A stretch of 60,615 bases of DNA, the filler included, from Globobulimina sp. (taxonomy: Eukaryota), in the NCBI GenBank assembly GCA_003354225.1. It is 12 parts of 12 records of this genome, joined end to end, with 100 filler letters (N's around TTAATTAATTAA, not from the genome) between each part and the next. Parts side by side here need not be neighbours in the genome. Positions count along the whole stretch, not along the records: positions 1 to 4,966 come from PIVH01000807.1; positions 5,067 to 10,031 come from PIVH01000808.1; positions 10,132 to 15,096 come from PIVH01000809.1; positions 15,197 to 20,157 come from PIVH01000810.1; positions 20,258 to 25,218 come from PIVH01000811.1; positions 25,319 to 30,278 come from PIVH01000812.1; positions 30,379 to 35,338 come from PIVH01000813.1; positions 35,439 to 40,397 come from PIVH01000814.1; 4 more parts are not named here. One strand, written 5' to 3'. The notes under the pieces were generated by a model. That model ran no database searches. It was not told the DNA's origin and saw nothing but the letters and a program-made list of their open reading frames with translations. Each line of letters begins with the position of its first letter. Positions within the stretch are counted from its first letter, which is position 1. Below, in pieces: positions 64 through 60,615 of this stretch. Made by a program: the position numbers and the translations under genes.

Positions 64-1580
64 TTATTCATCCTGCTTTGTATCCATATCATCCCCATCA
101 TAATCCTCATCATCATCACCCGCAGAAAATTCCATTTGCTCTTTATCGTGTTCCTCCACAATTTCCCGCAACGAACTTCTCCCATTAAAGTCACCAAAAT
201 TCTCCTCCGACCTAGTTTTGAATCTCTTCAAATCGGGGCTCTGATCCGGCATCACCGGAGGCACCGACTGCGGCACTGTCTGTGCTGTACTGTTACTGTC
301 ACTATTCTGTGACTGTGAGGTGATCGCAGAGGTGATCGTCTTATACAATTGCGACGATATCCCATTCTCGTGTTGTATTTTAATTTGTAATGCAATCTCA
401 AAATTATTTGTATGTAACAATATATTTTGCCATAATTTCTTATGTTTTTCTTGTTTCAATGTATGTGTAATAATATACATGGTCGCATCAATCACTTTCT
501 TCGCATTCACTCTGCTCTTCATCCACTTCCTTTGCGACAATAAACCTTGCAGCAATCTGGCCGGATTCTGTGTCATTATCAATTTCTTATTGGTTATAAT
601 CTGTGCCGCTGCCAAGCAGGGATTTAAATGCACACCAAAACAAAACATAAAATCCCACAATCTCTGCAACTCTGTATAACACAATACAAACAGTCATGAT
701 TTAAGCTTAAACTTTAATTTCTACTAAAAAAACTTTAAGTCACTACAAACTCAAAATGTCGAAATGTCAAAAAAGAATTGTTGCACCTACCTGTGAACGG
801 TTGTGAGATTGCTTGGAATGAGGCCACGAGTGGGAAGAAGTATGTATGTGCCGGTAATGGTTTTAAATGATTAAATATTTGAGTATCACAAATGGATAAT
901 ATATCCCATGATAAATATGAAGCAGCATAGGCACCGATTAAATCCTTCTTTCTCTGTGCAATATCGCTGTAAAAATAGGTTGGAAAGTGTTGATTTATTA
1001 AACAACTAAAAGTCTGAAATGCATCTAATTCGGGCATCACATATAATAGACCCGCTGCGATGGCATCCATTCCTTGGCAGTACGGCTTATTATATCGGTG
1101 TACGAATGAATTTAAAACCCGTACTAACCGCTCTTGGGATACGCGTGAATTATATTCTTCAGATGTTAAAAATGTGCGTTTTGTATCACCGCGTATTTTG
1201 ACATAATAATCTGGTGATTCTGCCTTTTTTATTTGGTTTTTATAATCGTTTGCATCTAAGTTACCAATTCCTAATACTAAGCGCCATAATTTACCGCGTA
1301 AAGTGTCTTCAACGCGGCGTATGGTTGGGAGGGCTCTGCCTATTCGAGTTAGTAAACGTCGTTCGGAAGGTTGGTGTTGTGCTTGTTTATCGTAATTGGT
1401 TTCAGCGATGATATCGTCTTCGGGACAGCTGTATAACAGTATATGTTTCCGTATGTTGACTGCGAAGCGATTTGCGTTTCGGTCTTGTTTTTTTTGAAGC
1501 ATTTCGTAATATTGATTGATCATTTTTTCCAGTTCGTTGTATTGTGTTGATTTTGGGCCTGCGTGACGGTGTGAATGCAT
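64..1580 (-). CDS. BUB2: Bub2/Cdc16-like TBC-domain GTPase-activating protein (2 exons; intron 672-790)
   Basis: TBC motifs LRGKLWRLVLG, IRGDTKRTF and YCQGMDAIAA. Splicing CAG|gtaggt...atacag|AG joins the two ORFs into PFTELQRLWDFMFCFGVHLN, matching the Bub2/Cdc16 LWDFxxxxGxHLN segment. Confidence 0.85.
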
Positions 1581-1824
1581 GTCGAAGCAATGGTTTTAAT
1601 TAGCTTCAGTTAAAGCTGTTTTTTAAAGACTTACAGCACTACAAATGACACTATGTGCTTAGCAAACTCACGCAAACTGTTTGGAAACACTGTATATAGT
1701 ATCATCAAACCAATCATTTTCAAAAGATTGATTTGATTGCCAACAAATTATAAAATACTAAAAGAGTCGTTTTTTATTAAATTAAGAGAAATAATCCCCC
1801 ACACAAAATAAAACAATTGTTTTT

Positions 1825-3229
1825 TTAATAAAAAGAAGGTATAGCAAATGTAATGCCAAAAACAGAAAATATAAAAACTAAAAATATAAATATTGCAATC
1901 TTTGGTTGTTTTGCATCATTATCCGCATAATTACCAGATTCATTTGTATTACCTTTGAATAAATTCACATATTAAATTTCGAATTGTTAACATTTAAGAC
2001 AAATTAAACTAAACTTAAATCAGATATTGATTTTGTATCTTTACTTTCAAATAATTCATTATCCCGATTTTCATCATTATTTCCAACTTCTTTTAAAATA
2101 TTCAATTCATTTCCATTTTCATTTTTTTCTTCTTTACAACTTTCAAATGTTTTTTTATTCAATAATTCAAAAAATTTCGTTCTTAATTGATGATTCTCCA
2201 CAAAATTATTTATCATTTCTTCATTTAATTCATTTCCATTCCTAAAAAACAACCCATCAAATATGTTTTTATTATTTTTTAATTTTTCAAAACATAATAA
2301 ATATTCTTCTTTTTCTGTTTGTTAATTAAAGGTAAAACAAAACAATATACAAAATAAATACATACCAAATTCGGATTTATTCCCACAATCAACCAGTAAT
2401 GAAATACATTTTTCAATATTAATATCAATATTTGTATCCTTTTTATTTTTATTTTCTTTTTGTTTACAATTCTGATTCAATTCATAACATTTATTAGTTT
2501 GCGGTACAAAATGCAACCATTGACATTTTTTTCCACGCGGACAATTTCCAGAGGCAAAATCCCAACACACATCATATAACAACGCTGCATCATTCGCATC
2601 ATCCAAACCACAATGTTGAAACGGACATGATTTCCCTTTGTTACATGCACCATTTTGATAAAATATGCATGGTGTTGATTTCTTTAAATCTGACATTTTT
2701 TTCATTTGTTTATATTTTTGATTGCTTGGTTTTGAATATGGACCACATGTAAATTGTTTAATGTTATTGTTATCGGCATAAAATATTCCTTTCTTGCACA
2801 TTTTATATTTATTTTCGTCATTTTTTAATCCTTTTGCTTTTTCTGTATAAAGTAAACATTATTGTTATTGTATACAAAGTACAAAATGCAAATTAACTTT
2901 TTTGGTGAGTAGCTATATCTTGTTTTGATTCCTATGGTCGTTTTTTAATGTTTTAGTGTCGTTTATTAACGTTTTAACATGAAATATGATAAAAACTAAA
3001 CTTTTGAAATATATAAATTAGTGACAGCAGATATGAATGGAATGGTTAAATTTTTGCTATTTTTAAATGGTTTACTTTGAACAACAAATTTTAATATGAA
3101 CATAAATTCAATGAATGATTTTGCTTTAAATTGATTTATTTTTTCAATGTTGAATTTTTTTAATTCACATTCAATTGTTTCTGGCAATTTGTTCATTTTT
3201 AGCCAGCTAATCATCGTTTGGTTACTCAT
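1825..3229 (-). CDS. Tandem CCCH zinc-finger protein with SAM-like N-terminus and C-terminal transmembrane tail (5 exons; introns 2932-3001, 2843-2897, 2315-2365, 1953-2014)
   Basis: Two C-x7-C-x5-C-x3-H fingers (CIFYQNGACNKGKSCPFQH, CWDFASGNCPRGKKCQWLH). Four phase-compatible GT-AG introns link three listed ORFs, a 34-nt exon (2898-2931) and a last exon ending IAIFIFLVFIFSVFGITFAIPSFY*. Confidence 0.7.
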
Positions 3230-58228: not shown

Positions 58229-58280
58229 CTAGCTCACTTCAAGAAAACTTGCATTTTTCAAACATACCAAAACCTATGAA

Positions 58281-60615
58281 ATGGCGGAGGATGAAGGAGT
58301 ATGTCCAATTGAAAGCAACATCAAACACACCATCGGTAGAAACATAGGAATTAATGACAATGATCTAAAAATGTTTGAAAACGAAGATAATGAATTTGGT
58401 GATTCAAATGATGCAGAATTTGATGAAGAAGATGGAGATGGAATAATGAACGCAGACGAAGAATGGGATAGTTTCCATTCTTCAAACGACGGACAAGACA
58501 TAATACCCGTCACCATCCCAAACAATAACAACGGCGGCGAAGCATTGATAATTGGCGTAAAAGATGAGAATCCCTATGCCGAAGGCAACGAATTAGAGAT
58601 AGCCGCCGGAGGCCGTCCCGCAGCAAAAGACATCGCCGGTGACCCAAAGGAGAAATGTTGGATTTGTGATGCCTGCAATGCTATCAACAATTTATTAGAA
58701 TCCTTTAAAAAATACGATTACAAATGTTGTATTTGTACATCTCCCTTTCACCCCAACGTGGTAATTATATTCAGCAACGATTGGGACGGTATCAATGAAA
58801 ACGACCCAAACGAACAGATCCATACAGTATGGAATTGCCCCTTTTGTACGCTCAAAAATAGCATTCATTGGATCAAATGTGATGGCTGCGAGGCGCAGAA
58901 ACCACCTCCAAATCAAGTGGAGATCTCATATTCTTACATCGAGCCAAAGCTACATAATAAGCACGGCGCTGCCAATAAAAAAGAGAAACGAGTTCAATGG
59001 GAGCATAATAATGTTAAAAATGAAAAAAAAGGCAAAAAACTGCATAATTCTATTGTTAATTATGTCCGTCAACCACGCCTTGCAAATATTGGCGCAGCGC
59101 GGTCTATTAATGAATATCCGGCGAAATCTGTATTGAATGATGTATGCGAGCAGCGATTAACAAATATCTTTGGTGCGCCATATAAGAACAAATTATTATT
59201 GCCCAGCAATAAAAATAAATGGAGTGCAGATTGCAATTTGATGCATGGCCGTATTGAATGGACCTCGTATTCCAAGGACGCCAGAAGTTATTTCATATCT
59301 TTTTGTGTTCTGTGGTCTGTGTAGCACGCAAATGCGCATATAAATACACTATAAAATGTAGAATTTGTAAGCGAAGAGATCGTGGCCCGCGGATTTGCCA
59401 TCAATGCAAGAAGTGGACACATAGCGACAATGTCTAGTCATTATATATGGATATTTGCGTGCATTGGCAGTTTAGAGTATAAATTGATTGCTCGCTATAC
59501 CTTCACCAAAGAGCAGCGTTTATTAAATGAAGACGTCTCTAATTCGCGCATTCGCTTTCTAGGCAATAATGTCTATGTGTGGTCCTTCAGTCGTTCGCGT
59601 ATTTATCGCTTCAAATTGTACGAAAACAGCAGCTTAATATTAGTGGATGTGCTCCGTGATAAATATTTCAAGGACTCGCAGACCATCGATGTGTGCATGA
59701 CGGGCAATTTATTGATCTTATTATTTGATCGCTGGTGCGGTGTTTACAAATTATATCCAAAATTTGAATGGTATCATGCCGTGGCCTTCGCCACCAAATC
59801 TGTCAATTGTTTTAGTTTAGAAATTGTTGATTTTGATGCGGAGGCTCCAGATCCGGAGGTGGAGGATGTTATTCTTGCTCCGAATCGGAATAAAGGGAAA
59901 TTTAATATTATGGATAAGCTACGACATAAAAATAAGAATAAAAGTGTTGTTGAAGAGAAAAAAGAGGATTTGTTTTATCGTGAAACGAATGGGAATTATT
60001 TGTTTATCAATGCGGAGAACCAATTGATAGGAATGCATCCAAGCAATCCGACTTTTGATTATTTGCATATTGCGCGGGATACACAACATGGAAAATGCCC
60101 GTATTGTATCTCAAAATATTACGGCGCGTTTTATTTGAGTAATGATGGGAAAAAATTGTACCAATCACCAAGTTTTTCGGCTGACAGTGTGGTGCAAATA
60201 AAAAGTTTAAATGATGCAGTATTAAATGAGTCGTTTTATGGAATTGAAGATTTTCATGATTTGATATTAAGGAAAGGGATTGAACGGTTTGTGAATGTGT
60301 GTTATGATGAACAGTATGGAATTAGTGGACGGTTATTGTTGTTTTGTGAAACCAGAAAAAAAGAATTTGTGATACATGCAATGTTTAATCAGAATGAGTT
60401 GTGTGGATTAAGTGAGGAGTTGGCGAGAATTGATTATTATTTGATGCCTGGGATGGATACTGATAAAAAACCGTTTAATTTTATTATTTTTGTGTATCAA
60501 TATTTATATGGACAGGATTTGGTTGATACGTTGTTGCAATCTCAAATGTTCAATCCGGCGCTGTTAAAAATCAAAAACAAGCAGGAAAGGCAACTCAAAA
60601 TCGTTCAAGATAATA
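58281..60615 (+). CDS. RanBP2-type zinc-finger protein with a long beta-rich C-terminal region (intron 59287-59361); 3' truncated
   Basis: WICDACNAIN..CCIC and WNCPFCTLKN..CDGCEAQKP. The second exon appears to stay open to the end of the window. Confidence 0.75.

Follow-up and report, generated by a model that had tools for sequence, protein, structure and literature searches.

Two coupled classes of 5' splice site in Globobulimina sp. and a possible reading of one donor motif in two registers

The DNA analysed here, referred to throughout as the window, is a stretch of 60,615 bases from the foraminiferan Globobulimina sp. (assembly GCA_003354225.1), composed of 12 contigs of 4952-4966 nucleotides (nt) apiece with N runs around a TTAATTAATTAA spacer between them, and with a GC content of ~30-43%. 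It carries eukaryotic genes, among them those for a kinase, a PHD/SAM protein, a Rab3-GAP, a GH47 mannosidase, a MACPF protein, an LCAT/PDAT protein and an Hsp70-like protein, whose exons are long and introns short; in its intron statistics it resembles the draft genome of Reticulomyxa filosa (50,809 scaffolds, N50 3.6 kb, 2 introns per gene, mean intron 87 nt; PMC13746701 Table 1). The feature of concern is the 5' splice site, or donor, of these introns, which comes in two forms: GTT after an exon ending in A, and GTA after an exon ending in G. We write these A/GTT and G/GTA, the slash marking the cut, and number the last exon base -1 and the first intron base +1. A first-pass annotation had proposed the two classes from 33 donors in gene models made by hand. 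The 17 of these listed with coordinates all bear the letters claimed for them on one strand (15 A/GTT, G/GTG at 35052 and G/GTT at 54848); the other 16 came without coordinates, so that letters were checked for the 17 only.

Transcript-type evidence was provided by contigs of the public sequencing runs X1-X4, on contig 1 (1-4966) only. The X4 contigs are near-identical to the window; those of X1 and X2 are ~95% identical and so derive from a relative. We infer an RNA origin for the contigs of these three runs: they skip eight segments that are present in the window and in X3 contigs, each bounded by GT..AG on the coding strand. Both donor classes are spliced in the relative. At three joints, two A/GTT and one T/GTT, positional ambiguity is nil (both=0), and the GTT class is therefore no artefact of boundary sliding. 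The introns, and a ninth donor at the contig end, are as follows.

672..790, minus strand, 119 nt: CAG/GTAGGT...ACAG, G/GTA class; joint 671 to 791 in X1, X2 and X4, the X3 contig reading through.
1953..2014, minus strand, 62 nt: TAA/GTTTAGT...AAAG, A/GTT class, GT at +6+7; joint 1950 to 2013, cut read +2, in X2 and X4.
2315..2365, minus strand, 51 nt: TTG/GTATGT...ACAG, G/GTA class; joint 2314 to 2366, X4 only.
2843..2897, minus strand, 55 nt: AAA/GTTAATT...ACAG, A/GTT class; joint 2842 to 2898, X4 only, both=0, side 33.
2932..3001, minus strand, 70 nt: AAA/GTTTAGT...ATAG, A/GTT class, GT at +6+7; joint 2930 to 3001, cut read +1, X4 only, side 33.
4039..4093, plus strand, 55 nt: GAT/GTTAAGTA...ACAG, T/GTT (GTTAAGT), the best possible shifted-register match; joint 4038 to 4094 in X1 and X4, both=0.
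4217..4273, plus strand, 57 nt: AAG/GTACTG...ATAG, G/GTA class; joint 4214 to 4272, cut read +2, in X1, X2 and X4.
4690..4760, plus strand, 71 nt: TCA/GTTATTA...ACAG, A/GTT class; joint 4689 to 4761 in X1 and X4, both=0.
4935..4966, plus strand, donor: AAA/GTTTAGC, acceptor past the contig end; loose ends at 4935 in X1 and X4 with identical continuation, hence partial evidence.

Removal of intron 4039-4093 restores the kinase motif LLTGYQPFE. All five A/GTT donors that the first-pass annotation had placed on this contig (3001, 2897, 2014, 4690 and 4935) are supported by the spliced run contigs. Two further joints, 117 to 388 (AC..TG, X2) and 2132 to 2704 (TT..TC, X4), have non-GT-AG ends and a shorter side of 21 letters, and are probably chimeric or repeat-derived contigs.

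A second group of introns was verified by homology. Single exons were searched against protein collections, then every frame-keeping GT..AG pair was scored by the BLOSUM62 alignment of the joined translation to a homologous protein, positions -1 and +3 being ignored. Removal of nine introns on contigs 7, 11 and 12 restores a reading frame colinear with the homologues P0001, P0002, P0003, P0024 and P0026; margins over the runner-up models on contig 7 are 22-46 points (P0001, P0002). Scores below are for the top pair against the runner-up.

33907..33962, plus strand, 56 nt: TCA/GTTATGTA...ACAG, A/GTT class (GTTATGT), GT at +6+7; 244 vs 214 (P0001), 230 vs 198 (P0002).
34321..34376, plus strand, 56 nt: AAG/GTATCTG...ACAG, G/GTA class; 284 vs 252 (P0001), 238 vs 196 (P0002).
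34618..34678, plus strand, 61 nt: TAG/GTATCTC...ACAG, G/GTA class; 241 vs 218 (P0001), 214 vs 191 (P0002).
34766..34814, plus strand, 49 nt: AAA/GTTATAC...ACAG, A/GTT class; 272 vs 248 (P0001), 271 vs 249 (P0002), the runner-up sharing the donor.
35052..35107, plus strand, 56 nt: AAG/GTGTGTA...ATAG, G/GTG; 192 vs 153 (P0001), 182 vs 136 (P0002).
54100..54192, plus strand, 93 nt: CAC/GTTAAGTT...ACAG, C/GTT (GTTAAGT), the best possible shifted-register match; sole frame-keeping candidate against P0024 and P0026, filling a 31-residue alignment gap.
54848..54903, plus strand, 56 nt: CCG/GTTTGTT...TTAG, the sole G/GTT exception, +5 G and +6 T; 268 vs 246 (P0024), 249 vs 244 (P0026).
55004..55057, plus strand, 54 nt: GTG/GTATGTC...TTAG, G/GTA class; 304 vs 291 (P0024), 314 vs 301 (P0026), with an 18-residue alignment gap.
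56367..56430, minus strand, 64 nt: CAG/GTATAAA...TAAG, G/GTA class; top for 3 of 7 homologues, the closest, P0003, at 268 vs 223.

A GVPYI block is retained only with donor 54848. Donor 56430 is placed with moderate confidence, since for the other four, distant PDAT proteins the alignment score of this pair lies at most 4 points below the top. At the contig 11 position of the C/GTT donor (54078-54104), the distant homologues P0023 and P0025 stop at ...DASR, exactly at the residue of the C/GTTAA donor, while the full-length P0024 and P0026 read on as ...ASH(S/A)DHP. If a phase-1 intron that follows C is left in and translated, the result is CGT (Arg) with a stop codon, hence a T, next to it; P0023 and P0025 thus very probably have T at +3, that of a C/GTT donor, at this site. 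This comparison of protein ends suggests that P0023 and P0025 are unspliced open reading frame (ORF) calls, and likewise suggests that the GTT donor is conserved at this position across relatives of ~35-40% identity. On the minus strand of contig 12, P0003, the closest PDAT relative (66% identity), is gap-free across the position of the window's intron (56292-56430), and after GGPLLG it has a hydrophobic tail (FSFVGCVF...) resembling read-through of an intron that the window is without; intron positions thus seem to differ between close PDAT relatives.

These two sources make up a verified set of 18 donors on 4 of the 12 contigs (1, 7, 11 and 12), with some genes contributing several. Seven are A/GTT and seven G/GTA, with one each of G/GTG, G/GTT, T/GTT and C/GTT and no A/GTA. 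An exon-terminal A is followed by GTT in seven cases and by anything else in none; an exon-terminal G is followed by GTT once and by other triplets eight times (Fisher p=0.0014). Viewed from the exon side as a whole, all nine donors without -1 G start GTT, and eight of the nine with -1 G start GTA or GTG; viewed from the intron side, GTT and GTR donors number 10 and 8, nine of the GTT donors being those without -1 G. Tetranucleotides of the form NGTN on both strands of the window are uncoupled (AGTA 325, AGTT 492, GGTA 224, GGTT 354), which excludes base composition as the cause. Intron phase (0/1/2) perhaps shows a lean, being 6/3/2 for A/GTT and 2/7/1 for G/GTA, but as the sole cause it too is excluded, each class being found in all three phases and the coupling persisting within phases. 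Intron length (49-119 nt) and acceptor (CAG 10, TAG 5, AAG 2; n=17) show no visible difference between classes, and the occurrence of early in-frame stops upon intron retention follows no consistent pattern. The coupling of -1 to +3 put forward in the first-pass annotation is thus confirmed.

The set was then extended by prediction. Initial joining of ORFs of 50 codons (261 ORF pairs) proved too noisy and was replaced by pairs filtered for coding potential, between which a rule blind to the hypothesis chose, from all introns of 45-130 nt that join the frames and end in YAG, the shortest. On a benchmark of 12 verified junctions the rule recovered the right donor in 8, erred in 2 and made no call in 2. 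From 21 unverified ORF pairs it drew 14 picks: five A/GTT, four G/GTA, three T/GTT, two T/GTG, and neither A/GTA nor G/GTT. The further claim that A/GTA donors are missing accordingly stands, at none of the 18 verified donors and none of the 14 blind picks. Nine predicted donors, selected by eye and coinciding with picks of the blind rule, were added to the 18 verified to give an extended set of 27, in which -1 A is followed by GTT or other triplets in 12 and 0 cases and -1 G in 1 and 11 (p=9.6e-6). These nine predicted introns are:

32644..32704, plus strand, 61 nt: GGA/GTTGAGA, A/GTT; no other GT..AG pair joins the frames of ORFs 32353-32697 and 32630-32863.
33307..33358, plus strand, 52 nt: ATG/GTATGTT, G/GTA; sole possible donor, with an alternative acceptor at 33376.
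42573..42630, plus strand, 58 nt: CAT/GTTATTA, T/GTT; sole possible donor.
23188..23244, minus strand, 57 nt: ATA/GTTTTGT, A/GTT, GT at +6+7; blind-rule pick of 2 candidate donors.
57510..57563, minus strand, 54 nt: ATA/GTTTCGT, A/GTT, GT at +6+7; blind-rule pick of 3 candidate donors.
58051..58108, minus strand, 58 nt: TTA/GTTTCGT, A/GTT, GT at +6+7; blind-rule pick of 7 candidate donors.
59287..59361, plus strand, 75 nt: GAA/GTTATTT, A/GTT; blind-rule pick of 6 candidate donors.
24607..24662, minus strand, 56 nt: GTG/GTATATT, G/GTA; blind-rule pick, with an alternative donor at 24665, C/GTG.
52553..52649, plus strand, 97 nt: AAG/GTATGTG, G/GTA; sole donor giving an intron of at most 130 nt with a YAG acceptor.

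The 15 A/GTT donors originally claimed fare unequally by these measures. Seven belong to the verified set, and four more (23244, 32644, 57563 and 59287) are what the blind rule picks; at two the rule chooses another donor, 8309 over 8282 and 18528 over 18501. Donor 8282 is nevertheless favoured over 8309, because an Asp-Lys (DK) repeat, which lies flush with both claimed intron boundaries, is then continuous. The remaining two, 25639 and 40653, are plausible candidates; the predicted A/GTTGAAC intron at 40573-40653 (minus strand) holds a (TA)n run of ~24 nt, and a Pro/Thr/Ser/Glu-rich frame runs on at both sides of it. Among the A/GTA sites considered, that at 51117 (AAA/GTAAGTACA) was rejected on finding that the homologue P0029 terminates exactly at the window's stop codon; the only candidate left is at 42323 (plus strand), AAA/GTAATACC, at the end of ORF 40996-42342, with frame-keeping acceptors that are 166-202 nt off and non-YAG. 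At 28170-28245 (plus strand) one stop codon parts two long ORFs in the same frame, the frame-keeping short-intron options being G/GTATAT (60 nt), A/GTTATT (60 nt) and T/GTTTAT (51 nt).

Might the coupling arise from sampling or modelling, that is, from a small, non-random set of introns or from donors picked to fit? The verified donors are only 18, some genes contributing several, the earlier models were made by hand, and blind ORF joining is error-prone: besides its score of 8 in 12, it suggested introns between ORFs 52223-51849 and 51845-51117, where the homologue has none. Against this, nine of the donors come from spliced contigs and nine from scoring blind to -1 and +3, and it is in this verified set taken alone, with the uncoupled background and the persistence within phases described above, that the association is already strong; we regard an artefact of this kind as very improbable. 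The boundary between the two ORFs just named is an in-frame TAA (51846-51848, minus strand) within a conserved block of an Exo_endo_phos (TDP2-like) gene, WFGD*KFTQRQ in the window against WFADRQWKERQ in P0029. Since the alignment to P0029 is gap-free the TAA is not part of an intron; an error of assembly, a pseudogene or read-through of the stop could each account for it.

The two classes differ at a third place. In donors with -1 G the downstream G typically stands at +5, followed by T at +6 (GTATGT, GTAGGT, GTGTGT, GTTTGT), whereas in GTT donors without -1 G it typically stands at +6, followed by T at +7 (GTTTAGT, GTTAAGT, GTTATGT, GTTTCGT, GTTTTGT). G occurs at +5 and +6 in five and one of the nine verified -1 G donors against none and six of the nine others (Fisher p=0.015); the figures for all 27 donors are 7 and 1 with -1 G against 0 and 10 without (p=0.00025). 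Measured against 478 background AGTT sites, the nine verified GTT donors without -1 G are enriched for +6 G (6 of 9 against 14%; p=4e-4) and for GT at +6+7 (5 of 9 against 4.8%; p=3e-5), while +5 G, present in 24% of background sites, is found in none of them. With the predicted donors included there are 15 GTT donors without -1 G, of which 10 have +6 G, 8 have GT at +6+7 and none has +5 G; A is at -1 in 12 (7 of the 9 verified) and at -2 in 9. When aligned on the AG and the downstream GT, both classes read A-G-(G or T)-T-A/W-W-G-T, one letter differing. The introns, then, are real, -1 and +3 are coupled, and the downstream G is displaced from +5 to +6.

This displacement bears directly on the variant U1 RNA that the first-pass annotation had offered as one explanation. 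A U1 with the changes C9>U and U6>A, pairing with A/GUU in the canonical register, would explain -1 A and +3 T taken alone. It would keep C4 and A3, so that +5 G and +6 T would be expected, contrary to the absence of +5 G from all the GTT donors without -1 G, verified or predicted, and to the prevalence of +6 G; nor do its predicted duplexes with donors separate from those with background sites (p=0.14), and they fall in mixed registers. Of the explanations considered this strikes us as the least credible, with hardly any probability to its name.

The published 5' end of U1 is AUACUUACCUG, with pseudouridines at 5 and 6 (PMC4856993 Table 2). Canonical pairing joins +1 G to C8 and -1 G to C9, and at some human sites a shifted register is described in which all pairs move by one (PMC4856993, PMC11162779). 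The exact cut is determined by U5 and U6, not by where U1 sits, as established in yeast and human work (PMC11162779, and PMC4856993 by citation). A count of Watson-Crick pairs with the published 11-mer gives the 15 GTT donors that lack -1 G a mean of 5.9 in the shifted register against 4.4 in the canonical; 10 of them have more pairs when shifted, 3 the same number and 2 fewer. The 12 donors with -1 G so counted all pair better canonically (6.9 against 2.6 pairs). Compared with AGTT sites of the background, A/GTT donors have more shifted pairs, with p=0.006 for the verified donors and p=0.0013 for all. The exceptions follow the same division. The G/GTT donor at 54848, GTTTGT, has +5 G and +6 T and therefore reads as canonical. 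The two verified donors that lack both A and G at -1 (4039, T/; 54100, C/) are both GTTAAGT, a sequence carried by none of the seven verified -1 A donors (p=0.028); GTTAAGT in the non-A donors is the compensation usual in U1 pairing, in which a weaker exon side of the helix goes with a stronger intron side.

We give roughly even credence to the reading that these are ordinary U2-type GT-AG introns whose two donor classes are one motif read in two registers, with shifted U1 pairing for the GTT class. The first class would be AG/GTA(T)GT and the second A/GTT(W)(W)GT, with the cut before the first GT of a common footprint; A/GTTwwGT would then amount to an AG/GTAnGT-like signal cut one base earlier. 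Shifted pairing would set -1 A against U10, +1 G against C9, +2 U opposite C8 as a mismatch, +3 U against A7, +6 G against C4 and +7 U against A3, after which U5 and U6 would set the cut at GU; the -1 A, the +3 T and the displaced GT would all be accounted for by the one shift. That A/GUU mismatches canonical U1 at both -1 and +3, as the first-pass annotation noted, holds in the canonical register but not in the shifted one. We infer that U1 pairing causes the pattern, that the 5' end of U1 in this organism is canonical and that one U1 species serves both classes. A search of the 60,615-base window for small nuclear RNA (snRNA) genes with Rfam gave no matches at the gathering threshold and, at E<=1, only a weak mir-451-like match.

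Several observations weigh against this reading. Predicted duplexes of A/GTT donors with canonical U1 are weak (mean -1.66 kcal/mol, n=12) and no better than those of the 478 background AGTT sites (-1.99; p=0.77), with G/GTR donors averaging -6.95 kcal/mol; and for 8 of the 12 A/GTT donors the lowest-energy duplex, by nearest-neighbour calculation for unmodified RNA, lies in an unrelated register. Of the 15 GTT donors that lack -1 G, only 8 have A and 6 have T at +4, the position that would come opposite U1 nt 6, and -2 shows no preference for C (2 of 15). U6 normally pairs with a G at +5, five nt from the cut, according to PMC11162779, which implies that a G at +6 would need either no such U6 pair or an unusual U6 arrangement. 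Finally, this is a small sample of 18 verified donors, from 4 of the 12 contigs, with nine more drawn from a rule that is right in 8 of 12 cases. The idea of a shifted register, which was also among the original suggestions, thus fits -1 A, +3 T, +6 G, +7 T and the exceptions and is strained by the weakness of the canonical-U1 duplexes.

The duplex energies are what lend interest to a second U1 species, one that would pair continuously with AGUUWWGU, for instance through a change at nt 8 that closes the +2 mismatch, so that each U1 served about half of the introns with the register still shifted. A hypothetical U1 with A at position 8 folds in the shifted register with all 12 A/GTT donors, at -4.47 against -3.63 kcal/mol for background (p=0.035), where canonical U1 gives no separation at all; and there are precedents in the co-evolved U1 5' ends of Entamoeba and Mastigamoeba and in Physarum, said to have a standard and a modified U1 (10.1101/2022.06.08.495308). 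The separation is modest, however, the best-matching donors (GTTAAGT) are complementary to nt 3-7 of canonical U1, so that an ordinary U1 fits them too, and in most lineages with unusual donors U1 remains canonical, as stated in the same source. We think a second U1 unlikely, while keeping it in view.

The same weakness of the predicted U1 duplexes can be turned to another account, in which the GTT class is recognised mainly by something other than U1 pairing (U5 loop I with the A-rich end of the exon, U6 ACAGAGA pairing, bulged or shifted, with the GT at +6+7, or proteins such as U1C or Luc7) and the U1 pattern is incidental. Altered recognition by U1C, Luc7 or the U5 loop had been the third mechanism offered in the first-pass annotation. 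The exon ends are indeed A-rich, as the counts at -2 and -1 given above show, and a non-canonical U6 register has been reported once, for human STAT3 (PMC11162779). Such recognition leaves no reason why -1 A should go only with +3 T, and does not explain why the non-A exceptions have the best U1 match; we rate it as rather improbable, a little below the second U1.

Returning to the reading of one motif in two registers, its widest form would be a dual-register donor code valid for the whole genome, under which some half of all introns would be cut 1 nt upstream of the position indicated by the U1, and probably the U6, footprint, with a spacing of 6 nt rather than 5 nt from scissile bond to paired G, whether through one canonical U1 or through a second U1, and perhaps U6, species. 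To this we lend a credence that falls just short of even. The first-pass annotation took the pattern to be genome-wide; the verified introns lie on 4 of the 12 contigs, too few for that term.

Non-canonical U1 registers are so far known only as rare human exceptions, proved site by site with suppressor snRNAs. If the reading is true, a genome with about half of its donors in the shifted-register signature is a natural large-scale experiment, bearing on how loosely U1 pairing defines the cut, on U6 acting out of register and on the co-evolution of donors and snRNAs. In such genomes, gene finders that treat donor positions as independent or assume a GTA-only consensus will put the ends of exons a few bases off. 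The arrangement of U6 at donors with +6 G is in our view the point of greatest interest.

No donor system of two register-shifted classes, whether foraminiferal or other, is described in the literature searched; the search excluded the Reticulomyxa genome paper, Roca and Krainer 2009 and supplements, whose splice-site logos could show part of it. GUUAAGU was met there only in unrelated RNA sequences, and scans of JGI metagenome contigs found no related loci. U12-type introns (donor /RTATCCTT) are excluded as the source of the GTT class, none of the 16 listed GTT donors having ATCC from +3. Two donors of one gene, at 34321-34327 and 34618-34624 (plus strand), read G/GTATCT and partly resemble the U12-type /GTATCCT, a resemblance and nothing further; for Reticulomyxa filosa, a published survey gives 2.1% of introns as 'minor-like' and reports no minor snRNAs (PMC11347168).

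Entamoeba offers a likeness as an AT-rich protist whose introns are short and mostly have U at +3: its donors are GUUUGU in 88-90% of cases and its U1 has co-evolved (ACAAAC), that of Mastigamoeba being ACGUAC (as given in 10.1101/2022.06.08.495308), so that the 5' end of U1 can evidently change with the donor motif. The Entamoeba donors, though, are one homogeneous class, with +5 G, the canonical register and a single altered U1, whereas here there are two classes, +6 G in the GTT class and a strict link to -1; one dominant motif of the Entamoeba type is not what the 10 GTT and 8 GTR verified donors present. Physarum polycephalum may be a precedent for a cell that has two U1 species (mentioned in 10.1101/2022.06.08.495308, where results are not given), its donors differing at +4, GUAUGU against GUAAGU, in what is described there with no shift and no coupling to -1. 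The bulge +3 (or +2) register of U1 (PMC4856993 Figure 1C) resembles the present case in placing an extra nucleotide between GU and AAGU, which brings G to +6. It differs in keeping -1 opposite C9 and hence favouring -1 G, which is found in none of the 15 GTT donors lacking +5 G; the sole G/GTT donor has +5 G.

The nearest parallel is the human shifted (+1) register (Roca and Krainer 2009, as cited in PMC4856993 and PMC11162779), non-canonical registers being estimated to serve ~1.5% of human 5' splice sites (PMC11162779). There all pairs are displaced by one, as they would be here, with the cut kept at GU by later factors, and the test oligonucleotide of PMC4856993 Table 2, with its exon-terminal A, GU and AAGU from +4, has the geometry of A/GTTAAGT. 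The human register is an exception, proved with suppressor snRNAs, whereas in the window 10 of the 18 verified donors are GTT and are known from sequence alone; and +4/+5 here is A or T, not AA.

Positions of animal 5' splice sites are themselves interdependent, maximal dependence decomposition showing a weak exon half compensated by a strong intron half. The window's donors are like these in that -1 is not independent of the intron positions, and unlike them in that the dependence takes the form of two discrete motifs, almost mutually exclusive.

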